Shown piece after piece: positions 53,468 to 60,231 of a DNA stretch of 64,000 bases. This DNA is from an uncultured Planctomycetaceae bacterium (GTDB lineage: Bacteria > Planctomycetota > Planctomycetia > Planctomycetales > Planctomycetaceae), in NCBI GenBank assembly GCA_963815195.1, contig CAWFGE010000008.1:128001-192000 (forward strand), in the 5' to 3' direction. The notes under the pieces are model-generated. The model worked only from the letters and a program-made list of their open reading frames with translations, ran no database searches and was not told where the DNA came from. Every line of letters starts with the position of its first letter. The stretch's first letter is position 1. Both the position numbers and the translations under genes were made by a program.

Positions 53468-54037
53468 GTGATGAGCCAGTTCCATACCTCGCTGAAGCGG
53501 CTCTTGTCCGGGGCCACGCTGAGCGGTTTTCTGTCGGCCGAGGGAAGCCCAGAGCCCCGGCCCGTCACTCTCGACATCAAACGCCTGGACAAATCCCGGG
53601 GCCCTCACGATTGGCAGCTTCACGTGGCGATCCAGGCGGTGGAGAACACCGTCGAGTGCGACCTCGCCGTGGACGTGCAGTGGGCGGGTTCGACGCCCGT
53701 GATCAGCCTTCATGAAGCGTCCATCCCCGGCGTGGGCACGGTCAATGCAAAGATTCTGATCAACAACTGCCTCTTCGCCGGGACCTGGGTGCACGAGGGA
53801 ATCCGCGGGGAAGTCTGGGGCGAGGTGTGGCCGCTGGCGGAAGCCGTCTCCCGCAAAGAACGCTTTGTGATCGAACGCAGCAGCGAGTTCCTGCGGGAGT
53901 GGTGGACGGGAAGCGAATGGTCCGAGGCCGCCGAGACAGCGCATTGGTACAAGCATGAACCCGATGGCCCGCGCATCACCGGCGACGAAGGCGCCCACGC
54001 CGTCTGCTATCCCAGCGGCGAAGTGGAACCGGGATAA
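53468..54037 (+). CDS. Hypothetical protein
   Basis: TAAGGAG RBS, genome-like codon usage, 189 aa; no recognised family. Confidence 0.7.
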   Translation: MMSQFHTSLKRLLSGATLSGFLSAEGSPEPRPVTLDIKRLDKSRGPHDWQLHVAIQAVENTVECDLAVDVQWAGSTPVISLHEASIPGVGTVNAKILINNCLFAGTWVHEGIRGEVWGEVWPLAEAVSRKERFVIERSSEFLREWWTGSEWSEAAETAHWYKHEPDGPRITGDEGAHAVCYPSGEVEPG

Positions 54038-54072
54038 GGGAAGCGGCGCACGTTCAGCGCATTTTGTGGTAC

Positions 54073-54395
54073 AAATCCGAAACGCGAAATCCGAAATCCG
54101 AAAGAAATCCCAATGACCAAAATCCTAATGACCAAACGCCCGGCACTCGGGTCTGTTTTATCGTCTTCGCCACTTTTGCTGAAATGAATATTCCCCCACA
54201 AGATGTTGTGGTGCGTCCAGCGTGGCCTGCTCATGGCTTTGCAGAGCATGTCCTGGGATTTGAGAGCATCCCGCATGCTCACGCAAAGCCGTGAGCATGC
54301 CACCCAGACGAAGCACGAAATGCACCAAGGGTTTGGAGATTGGGGTTTCGATCATTCGAAATTGTTTCGGATTTCGAGATTAGGATTTCGAATTT
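54073..54395. repeat. Inverted arrays of 7-nt units (AAATCCG / AATGACC) flanking an internal palindromic pair
   Basis: aaatccgaaacgcgaaatccgaaatccgaaa...caatgaccaa on the left; tttcggatttcgagattaggatttcgaattt on the right; inner inverted pair at about 54220-54305. Confidence 0.7.
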
Positions 54396-54402
54396 CCCCT
54401 CG

Positions 54403-55461
54403 TTACGGATAAACCTTCGTGCGGCGGCGCTCGGCGAGAAGGCTGAGAGCCAAATCCAGATTGTGGCGGGCTTCGGGATAGTGCCCGACGAGTTTGAGAG
54501 CCCGGCCGAAGGCGTCGATGGCGTCTTTCCACCGCTCCATTTCGAGATAGGCGTTGCCCAGGTTGTTCCAAGCCTCGGCGTAGCCGTCGTCCAGGTTCAA
54601 TGTCTTGAGAAACGCATCCCGCGCCTCGGCGAGCCGGCCCTGCGCATAAAGCGTGTTCCCCAAGTTGAAATACAGAATCGGATTGCCCGGTGCGATGGCG
54701 ATCGCGGTTTGATAGAGTTCCGCGGCCTCTGTGAGTCGGCCGTTCATTTCCGCCAAGAGCGCTTTCTCGAAAATCCGTCCGAGGTCGGCCGGGGCGGGGG
54801 GAATCTCGAAGGTGGCGTTCGTCTCCGGCGATTCGGAAAAATCGAAATACCGCTGCCCGTTGCCGTCCAGAAGCTGGCCGCGGTGCCGAATCAACAGCCG
54901 CCCGTGCTGCTCGATCCAATTCACTTCGGACACCGACTCCCCCGGCAGCCGATGTTGGTGCTTTCCCAATTCCCTGCGAATTTGGGCGATTGTGAAATCG
55001 GTTTCCGTCAGCCGCCACAAGCGTTTGGCCGTGGACAGGGCGGCGAAATTGAAAAACTCCAGCCGATGGATGACCTCAACCGGTTTGAGCAGCCCCCAGC
55101 GAACCCATTGGCGGAGCCGGGCGCTCGGCACTTGGAGCGTTCTCGCCAAATCCAAAAGCGTTAACCGGGACACGAGCGGTCCCCCGGCATCCAGATGCCC
55201 GGCGAGGCGATAGAACTCGCGTTCGGAAATTATCTGGAGGGCCGCCGTCTTCCGCAGTTCCCAGGCTTTGAGAAGGGCGCTCGAAGAGTCGGCACAGCCC
55301 TCGTCCCCAACGATGACATAGTCCGTTTGCCGATTGGGAACAGCGGCGCTCGGGCAGCCGAGTTCCCCGGCGAACTGGCGGAACTCCTTTTGCGACATCG
55401 CCGCAAACCGCCCGATGGGGCAGATCGTTTTTCCGGAAAGCGTGATCTCGGTATCCATCAT
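54403..55461 (-). CDS. BRCT + MerR-like HTH + TPR protein
   Basis: BRCT: LSGKTICPIGRF..MSQKEF...TDYVIVG...IISEREF. HTH: LLDLARTLQVPSARLRQWVRWGLLKP. TPRs: YFNLGNTLY, AEAWNNLGNAY, ARHNL. Confidence 0.85.
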   Translation of the reverse strand: MMDTEITLSGKTICPIGRFAAMSQKEFRQFAGELGCPSAAVPNRQTDYVIVGDEGCADSSSALLKAWELRKTAALQIISEREFYRLAGHLDAGGPLVSRLTLLDLARTLQVPSARLRQWVRWGLLKPVEVIHRLEFFNFAALSTAKRLWRLTETDFTIAQIRRELGKHQHRLPGESVSEVNWIEQHGRLLIRHRGQLLDGNGQRYFDFSESPETNATFEIPPAPADLGRIFEKALLAEMNGRLTEAAELYQTAIAIAPGNPILYFNLGNTLYAQGRLAEARDAFLKTLNLDDGYAEAWNNLGNAYLEMERWKDAIDAFGRALKLVGHYPEARHNLDLALSLLAERRRTKVYP

Positions 55462-55483
55462 CTCGAGTCAGCACGGGGATCCA

Positions 55484-57202
55484 TCAACCGGATTTCTTTT
55501 TGGTTTTCTTGGCCGCCTTGTCTTCCGCGTCTTGTGCGGACTTGGCCATTTTGCCCGCGGCTTTCTTTTTTGTGGCCTCGGCTTCGGTCGCGGCCTTTTT
55601 GGTTTTCGTTTTGGCGGGCTTCTTCTTGGCCGCGGGTTTTTTCGCGGCGGCTTTTTTCTTGGCGGGAGCCTTCGCGGCTTCCGCGGGTGTCACAGCAACC
55701 GGAGCGGGTTCCGCCGCAACGGTCGCCGGTTGGACCTTTGGCTCGTGGAGGTTCCAGCCCCGCTTTATATTCGCTTCCACGAGTTCATTCCACAAGTGCT
55801 CGATCTGCTCCAGCGAATCGGAAACCCGAATGTCGCGGGCCAGCGGGCTTTTGCGGTTGGGGCTGAAGTCGGTGTAATGCAGCACATAACCCGGGTAGTC
55901 TTCGTTCTCGTCCTTGTTGGTCTTCCACATCACGAACTTCCGCACCATGACTTCGCCCTTGGCTTCCTTGGTGTAAACCTCGCGCTGGAGCAGTTCGCTC
56001 TGGGGCAGAGTCAACTGCTTGGCGTCCCGGTCGGCGAGCGGCACATCGACGATCGCCGTGACCTGCTCGATGCGAATGTCCTGGCGGGTCGGCGTCTTGT
56101 CTTCCCGCCGGCGGATGAACTGCGGAGAGATCACCGACACCAAAGGCATCCGGCGGACGATGTGGTATTTGTCCGAACTATCGCGGTTCCAATCCAAGAC
56201 CATGCGGTGAATCGCCCCGCCCCGCGTGGTCTCCGCCACGAGATCCAGGCAACTGATTTCGATGACCCATTCCGGGCGGACCATCTGATAGGCGACGTGG
56301 TCGGAATTGATTTCCGCGTATTCGCTTTCGACGGTGATGTCTTTGAGGTCGCTCAAAAACTCCCGCCGTTGCTCTTCGGAAAACCCGCCGCCGACCCGCG
56401 TGAGAATCTGCAACGTCTCATCGCCCCGCCGAACCGCCAACAGCAAATCGTGGAGCATCCCCTCGCGGTCATCGACGGACTCGGTAAAGCCCACGACCAC
56501 CGCATCCAACGTATGCCGGGGTTTGATCTTGAACATGCCCGCCGTTTCGCTGCGGACGACCAGGCCTTCGCCGCCCTCCTCTTCGACCCACTGCTCGAAG
56601 AGTTTTTGGATGTCCTCGAGACCCACCGCTTCGCGGGCTTCCACCGGATGAATTTTCTCTCCGGCCGAAAACAATTCGCCGATGCGCTGCCACGTCGCGG
56701 CAAAGTCTTCGTCGGCCGGCTTGTCGTCCAGCGAGATCAGATCGAACACCGCGAACTGGAGCTGCGAAAGCTCGGCTTGGGACGCGGGGTTCCGGGCGAT
56801 CGAATTGACATCATGCACCCGCGGCCGGCGGTCGTTGCGGGCGACATATAGTTCGCCTGCGATCAGGGCTTCTTTGATCTTCGCTTTCGCGAACAGCTTC
56901 TCCGCCTCGGCGAGCCAAGGCAAGCCCGCGCGGACCGTGCCGCCGGGGTTGATGCAAAACGCCTGTCCCGCCCGGTACACGAGCACCGTGAACTCGCCGT
57001 CGATCTTCCGGCTCACGTGGTACTCGGCGGGCATGATTTTTTTGGTGATGTCCTGTTTTCCTAAGGGGGACATCCGCGCGCTCAGCCGCCGGCGGTAGTC
57101 CTGCACCCTCGGCAACAGGGACACATCGGCAATGGCCATCGACGTGCCCACGCCGTAAGAGCCGAGCTTGATTTCGAGGCGCGAGGGATCGAGAAGCGTC
57201 AT
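55484..57202 (-). CDS. ATP-dependent DNA ligase, atypical: adenylation + OB + WGR-like domain + Lys/Ala tail
   Basis: Motif I SRKIDGE, III IAGELY, IIIa FAVFDLI, IV GEGLVVR, V FKIKP; OB TLDAVVVG..RVGGGFS..VRPEWVIEI; VI PQFIRRREDK. ATG 57202 overlaps the upstream TGA (ATGA). Confidence 0.88.
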   Translation of the reverse strand: MTLLDPSRLEIKLGSYGVGTSMAIADVSLLPRVQDYRRRLSARMSPLGKQDITKKIMPAEYHVSRKIDGEFTVLVYRAGQAFCINPGGTVRAGLPWLAEAEKLFAKAKIKEALIAGELYVARNDRRPRVHDVNSIARNPASQAELSQLQFAVFDLISLDDKPADEDFAATWQRIGELFSAGEKIHPVEAREAVGLEDIQKLFEQWVEEEGGEGLVVRSETAGMFKIKPRHTLDAVVVGFTESVDDREGMLHDLLLAVRRGDETLQILTRVGGGFSEEQRREFLSDLKDITVESEYAEINSDHVAYQMVRPEWVIEISCLDLVAETTRGGAIHRMVLDWNRDSSDKYHIVRRMPLVSVISPQFIRRREDKTPTRQDIRIEQVTAIVDVPLADRDAKQLTLPQSELLQREVYTKEAKGEVMVRKFVMWKTNKDENEDYPGYVLHYTDFSPNRKSPLARDIRVSDSLEQIEHLWNELVEANIKRGWNLHEPKVQPATVAAEPAPVAVTPAEAAKAPAKKKAAAKKPAAKKKPAKTKTKKAATEAEATKKKAAGKMAKSAQDAEDKAAKKTKKKSG

Positions 57203-57910
57203 GACTGGGGCTCCGTCGGGGCTTTGAGTTCCAGGTTGGAGAGGTGCAAGATCAAGCAATAGTCTTCGCCGGCGGTCCGGCCTTCCAAGAAGCCGCGGTA
57301 AGGCGAGCCGCCGCGCTGGAGGATCAGGGGCTGATTGGACTTCGGCCCCGCCCCCACGAGCATCACGCTCTGTTTCTCTTCGAGCTCCTTGGCCATCCCG
57401 TAGAGAAAGTCATAGGTGAGGCCGTTGATGTGCACGAGCTGCAGCTTGTTGACGATCACAAACCGCCGGATGGCGTCGGCTTTCTTGATGAGCACCCCGG
57501 ACCATTTCAAAGGCGACTCGCCGGCCATGTTGGGGACGGCGACCTGCTTCGGCTGGCGGGACCGTTCGGAGCCGTCGGGGTTGCGGACGATCTCCCAGCG
57601 TTCGACGCGGTGCACGATCTTTCCGTCGGGATCGATAAACACGCGGGACGTGTCCTTCAAGAACCGCCCGGTGTTTTCCAGGTCCACTTCGGGATCGGTG
57701 TCGATCAACAATTGGGAGAGGATCGCGAGGTCCTCGTGCGCTTTCATCGAGCGCATCGATGTCGCGGTTCCGCGGGGATTTGAGAACGCGGACGGTCGAG
57801 GCTTGCCGGCCTTCGTCGTCCACCCAGCGGACCTGCTGCCTGACATTGACGCTGGCCGCCACGACCACGGCATCGCGGCCTTTGCTGTTGCTGATATTGA
57901 TTTCGCCCAC
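57199..57910 (-). CDS. Hypothetical protein, divergent Ku-like core (second subunit); frameshift near 57748
   Basis: GTG 57910 with a purine-rich RBS: MGEINISNSKGRDAVV...RDIDAL, then MKAHEDL...TYDFLYGMAKELEEKQSVMLVG...RGGSPYRGFLEGRTAGEDYCLILHL (236 aa once corrected). The Ku resemblance is by eye. Confidence 0.55.
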
Positions 57911-57951
57911 GGCGGTTTTCCCCTGTTGGGAGCATTCGAGAAAAGTTCGAT

Positions 57952-58004
57952 CATTAGCCGCAGGGCGGTGCCACCCTGCGGGCGGTGCCACCCTGCGGCT
58001 AATG
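57952..58004. repeat. REP-like hairpin between the two Ku-like genes
   Basis: cattagccgcaggg...ccctgcggctaatg with an internal tandem duplication of gggcggtgccaccctgc. Confidence 0.8.
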
Positions 58005-58007
58005 AAA

Positions 58008-58625
58008 TTAAATCATGCCGAAGTCCATCAGGTCTTCGCTTTCCTCCGTGGTTTCTTCTTCCTCTTCGTTGAGTCCCTGCGATTCGCCCAAGCCGACGTA
58101 TTGCAGCCGGGCTTCGCTGCCGATCGCCAGAAACACATGGCCGTCCTGGCCCATCAACAGGAACGCGGCGTCGGCTTCCAAACCGCCGCGGTAGCTGAAG
58201 TCGAAGGCGAAGATCGTCCCTTTCTTCAGCTCCGCCAGGAGCGGGTCCGCGGGATCGACGGCTTCCATCATGTAGACCGACCGCAGGTTGTGATTGAGGT
58301 ACGTCTCCGCATCGACCGAGCCGGCCAGTTCGATCGGTGCATCGAACGACGAGGGCACTGGCTGGATTTCGTGGCCTTCCAGGTCGATGGGCTTGAGGGA
58401 TTTCTTTTCGCACCAAAGCCCGGTCGCCGAGCGGTAACCGAACCCGGTGCCGCCGCGGCCGATGAGCGTGCAGCCGTCGTCCGCGAGGGTGGCGAGTTCG
58501 CAAGCCCGGCCCTCTTCGTCGCGGACCTCCGTTTCCTTAAAACCGTAAAGCTTCTCGCGATCCACCTTTTGCATCTCAAACGCAAACGTGGCCTCGCCGA
58601 ATTGGAAAGTCAGTTGCCTGGGCAT
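58008..58625 (-). CDS. Hypothetical protein, divergent Ku-like core (first subunit) with acidic tail
   Basis: LTFQFGEATFAFEM, GTGFGYRSATG, PIELAGSVD...LRSVYMM, LLAELKKG, FSYRGG..AAFLL follow the element order of prokaryotic Ku (ISFGLV, KGYE..G, IEI..FV, YYL, LL.AL, LRG...A.L). Confidence 0.6.
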   Translation of the reverse strand: MPRQLTFQFGEATFAFEMQKVDREKLYGFKETEVRDEEGRACELATLADDGCTLIGRGGTGFGYRSATGLWCEKKSLKPIDLEGHEIQPVPSSFDAPIELAGSVDAETYLNHNLRSVYMMEAVDPADPLLAELKKGTIFAFDFSYRGGLEADAAFLLMGQDGHVFLAIGSEARLQYVGLGESQGLNEEEEETTEESEDLMDFGMI

Positions 58626-59127
58626 TGCGTGGTCCCGCAGGATTGGAGAAGAGCCGAAAGGGATGTGCCACCCAAATATGCGCGGGAATTTTCGACCGGG
58701 ACCGGAGTCTTCGCCGACCTCGTGAAAAATTCCCGGAACCGCGCCGCCAAACTCCGCACAGCCCGCAAAAAGGGACTTGGTCCCGCGAATCCAAATTCAA
58801 GCAGGACCCGGGGTTATCGTCGGCTGGGAAAGTTTGCCGGCGGATGCGGGGAAATCTCAAAAAAATACTCTGGGATTTCCTGATTCCGCCGGTGGAGCGC
58901 GGGGGATTTCAACAATTTATGCACAACGCGCCCACCCCGGAAAATCGACGTGAAATTCCTGAACCGTCGCGTGAGCCAATACTTAGGACGCGAACCGTGC
59001 TGTGTTTGAAAAAATCGCGCTCGGCGATCCATCCCGGGCGGTAAACTCAAGGTGGGACGGAACTGCGCATCGAAGCGGGTTTGCAAAGGAGGCGTTTTCA
59101 GCGGCGTGTGATTGATCGGCGGGAAGC

Positions 59128-59715
59128 ATGTCTCCGGATGGCGTGGCGATTTTTTTGCGAGACCACCAGGGCGAAGAGCAGCCGGTGGAGTTCACCTGGG
59201 GCACCGACGCCGCCAGCATCGAGCGGGTTTGGGACGCGGCCGTGAAAAAACTGTCGGCAAAAGACGCCGACGAACTCCGCCGCGAAGGGTATTACGCCCG
59301 GCTCGTGTCGTTGACGGCGCTGGCCTCGGAAGACATCGGCCAGCCGGACTTCATCGAGACCTGCCTCCGCCAGGTCGAGGTTCTCGTGGACCGGGGCGAC
59401 TGCACGAGCCACGCGGGCAACGAAACGGTGACGCAATCCTTCCTGGAAGCCATCCTGGCCAGCGACCGGATCCTCGTGCCGCTGCCGGCGCATGCACCGG
59501 CGTTGCCGGAGTTCGCGGCGGATTATCTGGATTGCCTCGACGCGGGCGATGTCGAGTTGCCGTTGTATTTCGTGCTGCAAGAACGCACGCCGACCCATGC
59601 GATTTATGCGGTCCAGGAATGGGAACCGCCCCGGCCGCGGTTGGGAAAGATGGCTCCCTCGCGGCAAGGTTTGGAACGCGCCCGGCATGCCCAAAGCTCG
59701 GTTGAATATCATTAG
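59128..59715 (+). CDS. Hypothetical acidic protein
   Basis: 195 aa ORF with genome-like codon usage, divergent from the ligase operon. Confidence 0.65.
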   Translation: MSPDGVAIFLRDHQGEEQPVEFTWGTDAASIERVWDAAVKKLSAKDADELRREGYYARLVSLTALASEDIGQPDFIETCLRQVEVLVDRGDCTSHAGNETVTQSFLEAILASDRILVPLPAHAPALPEFAADYLDCLDAGDVELPLYFVLQERTPTHAIYAVQEWEPPRPRLGKMAPSRQGLERARHAQSSVEYH

Positions 59716-59859: not shown

Positions 59860-60231
59860 ATGCCGCGATTCGTGATTTTAACGCACGATCATCCCCATTT
59901 GCATTGGGACTTGATGTGGGAAGAGCCACGCCGGGAAAAGCTGCGCAGCTTTCGATTGGAGCAGCCCCCGGCGGAGGGCATTCTCATCCGGGCCGAGGCC
60001 TTGTCCGATCATCGCGTGGCCTATTTGGATTACGAAGGTCCCGTGAGCCGGAACCGGGGCGAAGTCAAACGCTGGGACTGGGGAGACGTGGAGTCGCTCG
60101 CCGACACGAGCGAAGAAATCTCACTGCGGCTCTTGGGCCGGCGGATTGCGGGGACCGCGGTGTTGACCCAGAACCGCGAGACGGGCTGGACCTTGCGCTA
60201 CATTCCGGATTCATTAGCCGCCGGGCGCTAG
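59860..60231 (+). CDS. Stand-alone LigD 3'-phosphoesterase domain protein (LigD_N / PE)
   Basis: RFVILTH...LHWDL, LRSFRL, DHRVAYLDYEG, GEVKRWDWG match the PE signature FVVQxH..HYDxRLE..DHPxxYxxFEG..GxVxxWDxG. Confidence 0.88.
   Translation: MPRFVILTHDHPHLHWDLMWEEPRREKLRSFRLEQPPAEGILIRAEALSDHRVAYLDYEGPVSRNRGEVKRWDWGDVESLADTSEEISLRLLGRRIAGTAVLTQNRETGWTLRYIPDSLAAGR

Follow-up and report, generated by a model that had tools for sequence, protein, structure and literature searches.

Two unlike small proteins of predicted Ku fold encoded with an ATP-dependent DNA ligase in a planctomycete: a candidate heterodimeric end-joining module

Introduction

The window analysed here, a stretch of 64,000 nucleotides from an uncultured Planctomycetaceae bacterium, carries two short tandem genes, A and B, and raises a question: can two proteins so dissimilar be the halves of one Ku ring, and if so, what does that ring serve? 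An earlier note, made from the letters alone, had seen in them two Ku-core-like proteins and proposed an obligate heterodimer analogous to eukaryotic Ku70/Ku80. A bacterial Ku heterodimer is, as an idea, already proposed: Ku3-Ku4 of Sinorhizobium meliloti are suggested to act as such by Dupuy et al. (PMC6379672). In our literature search, which covered the main text of largely open-access papers, no paper describing the A-B-ligase cassette was found. From the analysis below we regard it as probable that A and B form a stripped-down heterodimeric Ku which, together with a dedicated ligase, serves end joining. The ligase coupled to gene B, absent from the first reading, is the strongest functional clue.

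The locus

Table 1. Features of the cassette and its surroundings (positions in the window)
Feature	Position	Strand	Description
BRCT + MerR-type HTH + TPR protein	54403-55461	-	22 bp past ligase
ATP-dependent DNA ligase, 572 aa	55484-57202	-	nucleotidyltransferase and OB domains, ~95-aa C-terminal domain, Lys/Ala-rich tail
Gene B	57199-57910	-	236-aa Ku-fold protein, many conserved basic residues; one extra assembly base ~57748
REP-like repeat	57956-58003	.	tandem 17-bp units with palindromic ends, within the 97-bp A-B spacer
Gene A	58008-58625	-	205-aa Ku-fold protein: barrel and bridge arm, acidic core, acidic tail
Stand-alone LigD 3'-phosphoesterase domain	59860-60231	+	divergent, 1.2 kb upstream of A

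Gene B runs on the minus strand from GTG at 57910 to TGA at 57199 and is divided between two frames; its 712 bases minus one make 237 codons, that is 236 amino acids, and the closest intact relatives have 235-236 (most among the matches listed, 235-245). In tblastn the halves of intact relatives fall in two different window frames, and one short-read contig (run X1, 57725-58005, depth 4.1) has one base fewer at 57748 and is otherwise identical. An error in the assembly is the most likely cause of the frameshift, the short reads being supportive but not conclusive since they amount to a single contig of low depth. The sizes first given for the two proteins, with one base corrected in B, were confirmed. 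Neither family is a product of chance, as 609 of 822 candidates proved to be homologs of A and 2193 of 2227 homologs of B, and family A is spread over 725 clusters at 50% identity.

Among loci with enough flank, A lies upstream of B in 174/185 with a median gap of 25 bp, and the full order A-B-ligase is kept in 157/169. The ligase follows B in 173/184, an operon with an ATP-dependent DNA ligase that is reminiscent of bacterial Ku and LigD; in the window its ATG overlaps the TGA of B (ATGA). Natural fusions were not met among the loci examined, and an apparent B-ligase fusion at L026 was rejected since it crosses an N gap. No sigma-70-like promoter was found in 54000-59200, and no RNA holder among the matches listed. 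The REP-like repeat occurs at 34 sites across the genome, is spanned by a short-read contig, and is a genome-wide repeat outside the system.

Fold of the two proteins

At the level of sequence, Ku homology of A and B was not proven by hhalign, PDB profiles or Pfam. Profile-profile comparison with Ku, suggested by the earlier note, gave a weak signal (hhalign E 0.054 for A and 0.29 for B), and PDB profile searches with both proteins returned chance matches alone, none of them to Ku. Pfam assigned no family to five A/B proteins at E<=1, PF02735 had no match genome-wide at the same threshold, the families listed for 150 A (25 of 40 families) and 150 B (25 of 32) do not include Ku, and NCBIfam had nothing for either. 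The ESM Atlas offered no usable match, its model of B being poor (pTM 0.18).

Structure prediction, together with two aligners, bore out the Ku fold for both. The AlphaFold model of A (pLDDT 89.2) has as its best Foldseek match the B. subtilis Ku core (E 3e-5); in the VIA comparison it aligns 162 residues with B. subtilis Ku (Z 11.0, rmsd 5.7) and 165 with M. tuberculosis Ku (Z 11.2, rmsd 5.9), and in a viral library its two matches with E < 0.001 are both phage Ku proteins, with no others. The fold of B was judged on an intact relative, P0126, rather than on the frameshifted copy of the window; this model (pLDDT 91.4) finds M. tuberculosis Ku first in Foldseek (E 2.4e-5) and aligns 172 residues with its chain 9i91_B (VIA; Z 12.2, rmsd 4.7). 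Superposed on Ku over the full length, A and B give an rmsd of about 5-7 A. DSSP recovered the order of Ku elements read from the letters, since each model begins with a pair of strands, continues with the long arm and then has a helix, a strand, a second helix and the closing strands; the motifs quoted for it, LLAELKKG and FSYRGG, YDFLYGMAKELEEK and LQRGGSPYRGFL, and LILHL, are all present. The little identity noticed between A and B was also upheld: hhalign of shallow alignments gave nothing and that of deep ones a weak collinear match (E 0.0024, 146 columns, probability 12%).

As for a Ku core in the strict sense, the fold is supported while the extent is not, both proteins being shorter than the core and devoid of its C-terminal helices: alignments stop at residues 174-180 of the M. 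tuberculosis and 188 of the B. subtilis protein, and no helix follows the last strand. The basic tail, whose lack had been pointed out, is indeed missing, A having an acidic terminus and B ending a median of 9 residues past K229. The GLVxxP loop, to which PMC12784961 ascribes a role in Ku oligomerisation, is found in 0/150 A and 0/150 B sequences against 18 of 25 canonical Ku. The pair stands apart from bacterial Ku as two dissimilar subunits that the Ku HMM does not see and that end near Ku residue 177-188, without alpha3, the LigD-recruiting helix, the basic tail and the loop. Lacking these elements, the two would be Ku-like in action and yet not members of PF02735.

One specific feature of the DNA-binding surface may be preserved in B, where E227-L-K229 superposes on E-V-R188 of Ku, so that the E-x-K/R pattern is shared (E at 227 in 148/150 sequences, K/R at 229 in 144/150); R188 is a DNA-binding residue of B. 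subtilis Ku (PMC12784961). R41, R89 and R118 are, like K229, conserved basic residues of B.

The barrel itself is less exclusive. Like those of SPOC, MED25-ACID and Sld7 (PMC10111866), it is seven-stranded and distorted, and A and B might be SPOC-like adaptors, bound to one another and to the ligase, that assist nick sealing as cofactor or clamp with no threading of a DNA end. SPOC domains reach Z 11.7 against the B model, a tie with Ku (12.1); the core of A is acidic, the helical arm of Ku is missing, and A ends in a conserved acidic motif, D-F-x-M-hydrophobic (134/150 sequences), and acidic peptide motifs at a C-terminus are what SPOC barrels recognise, per the same source. We nevertheless consider such adaptors distinctly unlikely, since a long bridge arm, an insertion by which A and B differ from SPOC, is present in both predicted models and brings the residues aligned to Ku in full-length superpositions to 157-176, against about 100-114 for SPOC (92-109 for A in the VIA comparison with SPOC-type barrels). 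The arms, moreover, hold conserved basic residues and form much of the predicted interface. SPOC domains are described in that review as eukaryotic peptide-binding modules, and no bacterial SPOC clades are reported there as detected.

The predicted complex

The pairing of A with B, proposed at first from the letters, was recovered by complex prediction, where the window's A paired with the B of a relative, as A+B without DNA, scored 0.76 in three runs against 0.00 for the best control, with 316-348 contacts, at least 89% contact agreement between runs and partner pLDDT of at least 76. The mark applied is reached by 116/157 solved pairs and 2/215 mismatched ones. The predicted interface spans both arms, with A112-114 pairing with B151-154 in the intertwined Ku pattern, although the pass may be due to likeness to solved Ku dimers. 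Coevolution between the chains was underpowered (mean-field DCA, 167 paired rows, effective 128): 25 predicted contact pairs had a mean z of 0.06, the null being 0.24, and the strongest couplings in the same rows showed no excess of interface positions, so that the analysis weighs neither for nor against the pairing. Identity matrices of A and B correlate at r 0.92, a value that kinship alone would give.

Bacterial Ku is as a rule homodimeric (PMC6379672 and PMC12784961), and one may think of A2 and B2 as independent Ku-like homodimers serving one ligase, the more so as B is apart from A in 11/185 loci. This we hold to be very improbable. A+B passes the prediction, and an A2 core would bear a net charge of about -20; with median core charges of -10 for A, +2 for B and -3 for canonical Ku (25 proteins), A+B comes near the Ku homodimer and A+A does not. 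Of the 5 separated cases checked, moreover, 4 still have A at another site of the genome. At the lone-B loci L022, L024 and L030 both A and the ligase lie at other sites, and in a fourth lone-B case, a 2.8-Mb bin, neither was found. The A-B pairing may, as the first reading had it, be obligate.

The likeness to Ku70/Ku80 (1jey and others) stood in part. A heterodimeric ring of diverged Ku cores is predicted for A+B, and the models match Ku80 core residues ~246-435; the nearer analogy is bacterial Ku3-Ku4, a pair assigned to a pathway with LigD4 (PMC6379672), in which two unlike genes also lie in tandem and are co-retained. A and B lack the vWA, SAP and C-terminal helical domains of the eukaryotic subunits, their whole folded length being Ku core, and no special ancestry link to Ku70/Ku80 was shown, Z-scores to bacterial Ku and Ku80 being tied. 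Ku3 and Ku4 in turn are recognisable Ku orthologues in that source, while A and B score nothing on PF02735, can hardly be aligned with each other and have their own ligase family. Planctomycetes do also have tandem pairs of canonical Ku, which PF02735 recognises.

The ligase and neighbouring genes

Judged by its residues, the ligase is catalytically intact: K66, D68, G69, E117, D154, K227, R366, D368 and K369 are invariant in 101/101 sequences, and E212 and K225 are retained in 100/101. Its top NCBIfam match is an NHEJ ligase model, under the cut-off. Unlike LigD, it has no fused polymerase or phosphoesterase (its matching families are all ligase families), stays far under the LigD cut-off (66.6 bits on TIGR02779 against 227.75) and carries a C-terminal domain of its own, about 95 residues long, conserved and with no Pfam family. 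This domain, with its three strands, helix and K-G-W end, may resemble WGR. The 23 families listed for 57 such domains do not include WGR, and a PDB search gave no match. WGR-bearing planctomycete ligases (PMC7470946) have an OB-2 domain and appear to be another group, since the window ligase has PF04679.

A weak match to the RNA_ligase family of Pfam (E 1.7e-5, below cut-off) might suggest that the cassette repairs RNA and not DNA, which we find barely credible given that the DNA-ligase OB domain PF04679 scores above its cut-off and the relatives of the ligase in the PDB are DNA ligases.

In the loci examined the cassette has no end-processing gene as a constant companion, and a search of the host genome (94.6% complete) for a LigD polymerase found none. 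The stand-alone phosphoesterase gene of the window (PF13298 E 3.5e-9; TIGR02777 E 3.4e-6, below cut-off) is possibly an end-cleaning helper; as a neighbour it is not conserved, with no blastp homolog in 80 loci. The BRCT/HTH/TPR gene, with homologs in 11/80 GTDB loci, immediately after the ligase in 7, is probably an accessory fourth gene in one subclade.

Distribution

In a sample from the phylum of genome G301, B is carried by 38/251 genomes and canonical Ku by 53/251, and the latter is present in 0/38 carriers against 53/213 others (Fisher p 7e-5, over kin that are not independent); in Planctomycetota the counts are 0/12 carriers and 41/289 others (p 0.38). Mutual exclusion as a general rule had to be rejected, as canonical Ku is present in 8 of 50 further carriers (50 of the 80 GTDB loci, favouring longer contigs; nearly all planctomycetes), about the phylum rate of 41/301. 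From this coexistence it follows that the cassette is no simple replacement for canonical Ku.

The spread is patchy (5/151 genomes of the host family, 0/2 congeners, 4/201 in the phylum of G302), and one genome, G323, has 11 copies, those compared sharing units of 5-10 kb, mostly 87-98% identical and in one case near 70%. The copy read fully adjoins genes that we take to be serine-recombinase-like and Fic-like, and its ligase is fused to a putatively AAA+-like domain. Patchiness and the 11-copy genome fit a mobile-element or conflict role as well as they fit repair. The same ring and ligase might be mobile cargo with a task other than general chromosomal repair, capping or resealing ends that arise in the life of an element or when nucleases act in a conflict (restriction, CRISPR, phage attack), and the presence of canonical Ku in some of the same genomes would agree with it. 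We judge this unlikely: most carriers have a single copy amid unrelated housekeeping genes, the genes are retained in the genome after the operon breaks up, and 0/71 candidate stretches of viral contigs, with B as query, held a relative.

Proposed function and significance

The preferred reading, a reduced Ku of two unlike subunits, may be pictured as follows. Each subunit would consist of a SPOC/Ku beta-barrel with a long bridge arm, and the predicted interlacing of the arms would make a single A-B ring that, by analogy with Ku, would thread onto a double-strand DNA end. B would contribute most of the conserved basic residues, and acidic A probably recruits the ligase via its flexible acidic tail and terminal D-F-x-M, while canonical Ku recruits LigD by its C-terminal region. 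A barrel-plus-bridge fold and an intertwined dimer, predicted here, are shared with the Ku homodimers of B. subtilis and M. tuberculosis that work with LigD (9vnq, 9i91; PMC12784961, PMC12658125). The co-translated ligase would seal the break. Dirty ends would have to be handled by free-standing enzymes, since polymerase and phosphoesterase are not fused, and synapsis would have to be supplied elsewhere, because the loop and helix by which canonical Ku polymerises and synapses ends are missing; speculatively, the extra C-terminal domain of the ligase might serve. The whole would be a three-gene non-canonical end-joining module, spreading sideways.

A bolder claim, to which we would give an even chance, sets the cassette apart as a branch of prokaryotic end joining that the HMM does not see. 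Its mini-Ku would be asymmetric and obligate, with a basic B gripping DNA and an acidic A docking the ligase, and would work with its own ligase family and no filament-forming elements. It would be unrelated to Ku3-Ku4, so that heterodimeric Ku would have arisen independently once more, and in some phyla it would come close to canonical Ku in frequency.

Surveys of end-joining bacteria depend on sequence detection of Ku, and if the cassette is functional, many Ku-negative genomes would be miscalled, such as the carriers of B in the one phylum sample of which none has canonical Ku. With three genes and two small proteins, it offers a system for testing the minimal requirements of Ku, a test case for the passage from homodimer to asymmetric heterodimer, the step behind Ku70/Ku80, and another for how ends are synapsed when the Ku filament interface is lacking; it might also be put to use in editing bacterial genomes, as a compact tool for end joining.

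Gene order and conservation of the cassette

Genes A and B, coding for two unlike predicted Ku-fold proteins, stand in tandem before an ATP-dependent DNA ligase gene, and according to our comparison of sequences the three are linked and conserved, with an intact ligase. Our searches accepted 609 of 822 candidates as A homologs (725 A clusters at 50% identity) and 2193 of 2227 as B homologs, and among the matches listed no Pfam or NCBIfam name was found for either family. With B as query, 80 of 177 GTDB loci and 80 of 484 metagenomic loci were collected, and genome searches supplied 47 further B loci, 4 of them dropped as duplicates. When only loci flanked by 400 bp or more, and only genes no farther away than 1.5 kb, are counted, in three sets incompletely deduplicated against each other, A lies upstream of B in 174/185, the ligase downstream in 173/184, and both in 157/169, an order maintained down to 25-30% identity. 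At five loci where B has no adjacent A, A occurs elsewhere in the genome in four; the ligase was likewise present in the genome at four of the five loci checked for a non-adjacent one, and the sole miss for both is one and the same 2.8-Mb bin. Three Pirellulaceae genomes have the operon broken into three unlinked genes, all kept (L022, L024, L030, L136-L143).

Features of the cassette and its surroundings
Feature	Position	Strand	Remark
Gene A	58008-58625	-	205 aa
Gene B	GTG start 57910, end 57199	-	split over two frames
ATP-dependent DNA ligase			572 aa; start overlaps B stop (ATGA)
Lys/Ala-rich basic tail of ligase	55484-55700	-	
BRCT + MerR-HTH + TPR protein	54403-55461	-	22 bp after ligase
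Unannotated ORF	59128-59715	+	195 aa; divergent from A
Stand-alone LigD phosphoesterase	59860-60231	+	1.2 kb upstream of A, divergent
REP-like repeat	57956-58003		tandem 17-bp units, palindromic ends
AEP-primase/HAD-matching protein	L003:9633-10724	-	also at L002, L007, L040
Second ligase-domain protein (L252)	G000:C22:372393-372863		PF01068, E 7.4e-9
G323 cassette copy (L129)	4986-12995		ligase of 1091 aa

The broken frame of B is very probably an assembly error. Intact relatives share 78-83% identity with the two pieces, and exactly one base, at 57748, is missing in a short-read contig of a soil run that crosses the break, this read evidence being a single contig of depth 4.1, possibly from the same sample as the assembly. 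Another 12 split genes occur across 9 other genome loci, with scattered break sites. The closest B relatives are intact at 235-236 aa, which agrees with the 236 aa that the earlier note had proposed for this protein after an indel fix. The REP-like repeat is found at 34 genome sites with varying unit number.

Predicted Ku folds

In AlphaFold models built from 150-row alignments, A reached pLDDT 89.2 and P0126, the intact relative on which the B fold was modelled, 91.4. All six Foldseek matches of A under E 0.001 are Ku chains (top B. subtilis Ku, 3e-5), and the exhaustive aligner places M. tuberculosis (Mtb) Ku first (Z 11.2, rmsd 5.9, 165 aligned) and B. subtilis Ku next (Z 11.0, rmsd 5.7, 162 aligned), SPOC-type barrels aligning over 92-109 residues. 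The top Foldseek match of B is Mtb Ku (2.4e-5), with 172 residues aligned to its chain B (Z 12.2, rmsd 4.7); SPOC domains equal Ku in Z here but cover only ~110 residues, so that the arm is the Ku-like feature. These predicted models bear out the Ku-like fold suspected earlier, and the motifs and element order on which that call was based are present in both proteins. Sequence lends weak support to the kinship: profile comparison gave E 0.054 over 99 collinear columns for A against 25 canonical (PF02735-type) Ku and no sequence match for B, while A against B gave only E 0.0024, in line with the low mutual similarity noticed before.

A and B are set apart from the bacterial Ku family by their HMM score, by the C-terminal helices and loop, and by the tail. 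Their structural alignments go no further than residue 174-180 of Mtb Ku or 188 of B. subtilis Ku, and the alpha3 helix and GLVxxP loop, described as building Ku filaments in the parts of the sources consulted (PMC12784961, PMC12658125), are absent from both; the loop pattern occurs in 0/150 A, 0/150 B and 18/25 canonical Ku sequences. The last residue of B to align with B. subtilis Ku, K229, falls on R188, which the consulted part of PMC12784961 gives as DNA-binding. E227 is kept in 148/150 B sequences and K/R229 in 144/150, and A has no basic residue at the matching position. That A and B would be non-threading adaptors we regard as unlikely.

Predicted pairing of A and B

For A of the window with the B of a relative, the one pairing modelled, all three runs gave a score of 0.76, the best control 0.00; the mark, which applies roughly here, was reached by 116/157 solved pairs and 2/215 mismatched pairs; as Ku dimers are already solved, the pass may reflect likeness and not binding. 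With this reservation, it favours the partnership which the earlier note had put forward. The model shows 316-348 contacts, the runs agree to at least 89%, partner pLDDT does not fall below 76, and the predicted interface engages both arms and joins the barrels by A112-114/B151-154 and A176-177/B216-218. Strict co-retention and charge asymmetry are independent hints of pairing: median core net charge is -10 in A, +2 in B and -3 in canonical Ku, and ten positions in B, four in A, are at least 90% basic. An underpowered analysis of inter-chain coupling gave no signal. Two separate homodimers seem to us improbable.

As had been noticed, the basic tail usual in bacterial Ku is lacking; the C-terminal tail of A is acidic and bears a D-F-x-M-hydrophobic motif (134/150 sequences), which lies beyond the listed interface and is thus a candidate docking peptide. 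Basic tails of this kind occur here on the ligase, and also on some B proteins (such as the relative P0239).

Ligase and neighbouring genes

The ligase carries what we take to be motifs I (K66-x-D68-G69), III (E117), IIIa (F153-D154), IV (E212-G213), V (K225-x-K227) and VI (R366-x-D368-K369), all being kept in 99-101 of 101 sequences. It has an OB domain (PF04679) and a conserved ~95-aa C-terminal domain with no family among the matches listed; a basic tail is found in 29/166 ligases. The model it matches best is that of an NHEJ ligase, far under the cut-off, and the PDB entries related to it are DNA ligases; RNA repair as the role of the cassette is very improbable.

Homologs of the BRCT-MerR-TPR protein, a possible regulator or adaptor, occur at 11/80 loci, directly downstream of the ligase in 7. 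Neither the phosphoesterase nor the 195-aa ORF was found in 80 related loci, and no regular end-processing neighbour was seen across cassette loci. At 4/80 loci the cassette has near it a protein that weakly matches AEP-primase (E 0.0018) and HAD-phosphatase (E 0.046), a possible end-processing fusion. In the host genome (94.6% complete) neither canonical Ku nor a LigD polymerase was found; A, B and the cassette ligase are each single-copy, and a second ATP-dependent ligase-domain protein is encoded elsewhere.

Distribution and proposed function

Carriers are patchy: 12/301 Planctomycetota, 5/151 in the host family, 0/2 congeners, 38/251 in the phylum of G301 (Myxococcales) and 4/201 in that of G302 (Thermoanaerobaculia), with Burkholderiales and Gammaproteobacteria also included by database names. 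General replacement of canonical Ku, present in 41/301 Planctomycetota, is not supported among mostly planctomycete carriers, 8/50 of which also have Ku; it holds in the G301 phylum sample, where Ku occurs in 0/38 carriers versus 53/213 others. Service to a mobile element or conflict gains weight from another carrier, G323, with 11 copies, in repeated 5-10 kb units in the 8 compared (L128-L135). The cassette of one copy, L129, stands between what are, judging by motifs, presumably a Fic-like and a serine-recombinase-like gene, and its extended ligase has a presumed AAA+-like domain. We consider this role rather unlikely, though the strongest among the alternatives.

A bacterial heterodimer was already proposed from genetics for S. 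meliloti Ku3-Ku4, in the part of PMC6379672 consulted, and heterodimery by itself is therefore not new. Canonical Ku tandem or near-tandem pairs in planctomycetes and the G301 phylum (L241-L245) are possibly Ku3-Ku4-like and distinct from A/B. The consulted parts of a 2025 survey of Ku evolution (PMC11936186) never mention planctomycetes or myxococci, those of a SPOC review (PMC10111866) report no bacterial SPOC clades, and the literature searched, in its main texts, held no description of the A-B-ligase cassette.

It would be logical to suggest, from two predicted Ku folds and a modelled A-B dimer, that A+B with its ligase works like Ku with ligase. Probably, A+B would load onto DNA ends, the A tail would recruit the ligase, and together they would join the ends. 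What appears to be new here is a pair of HMM-invisible, truncated subunits with a ligase of their own.
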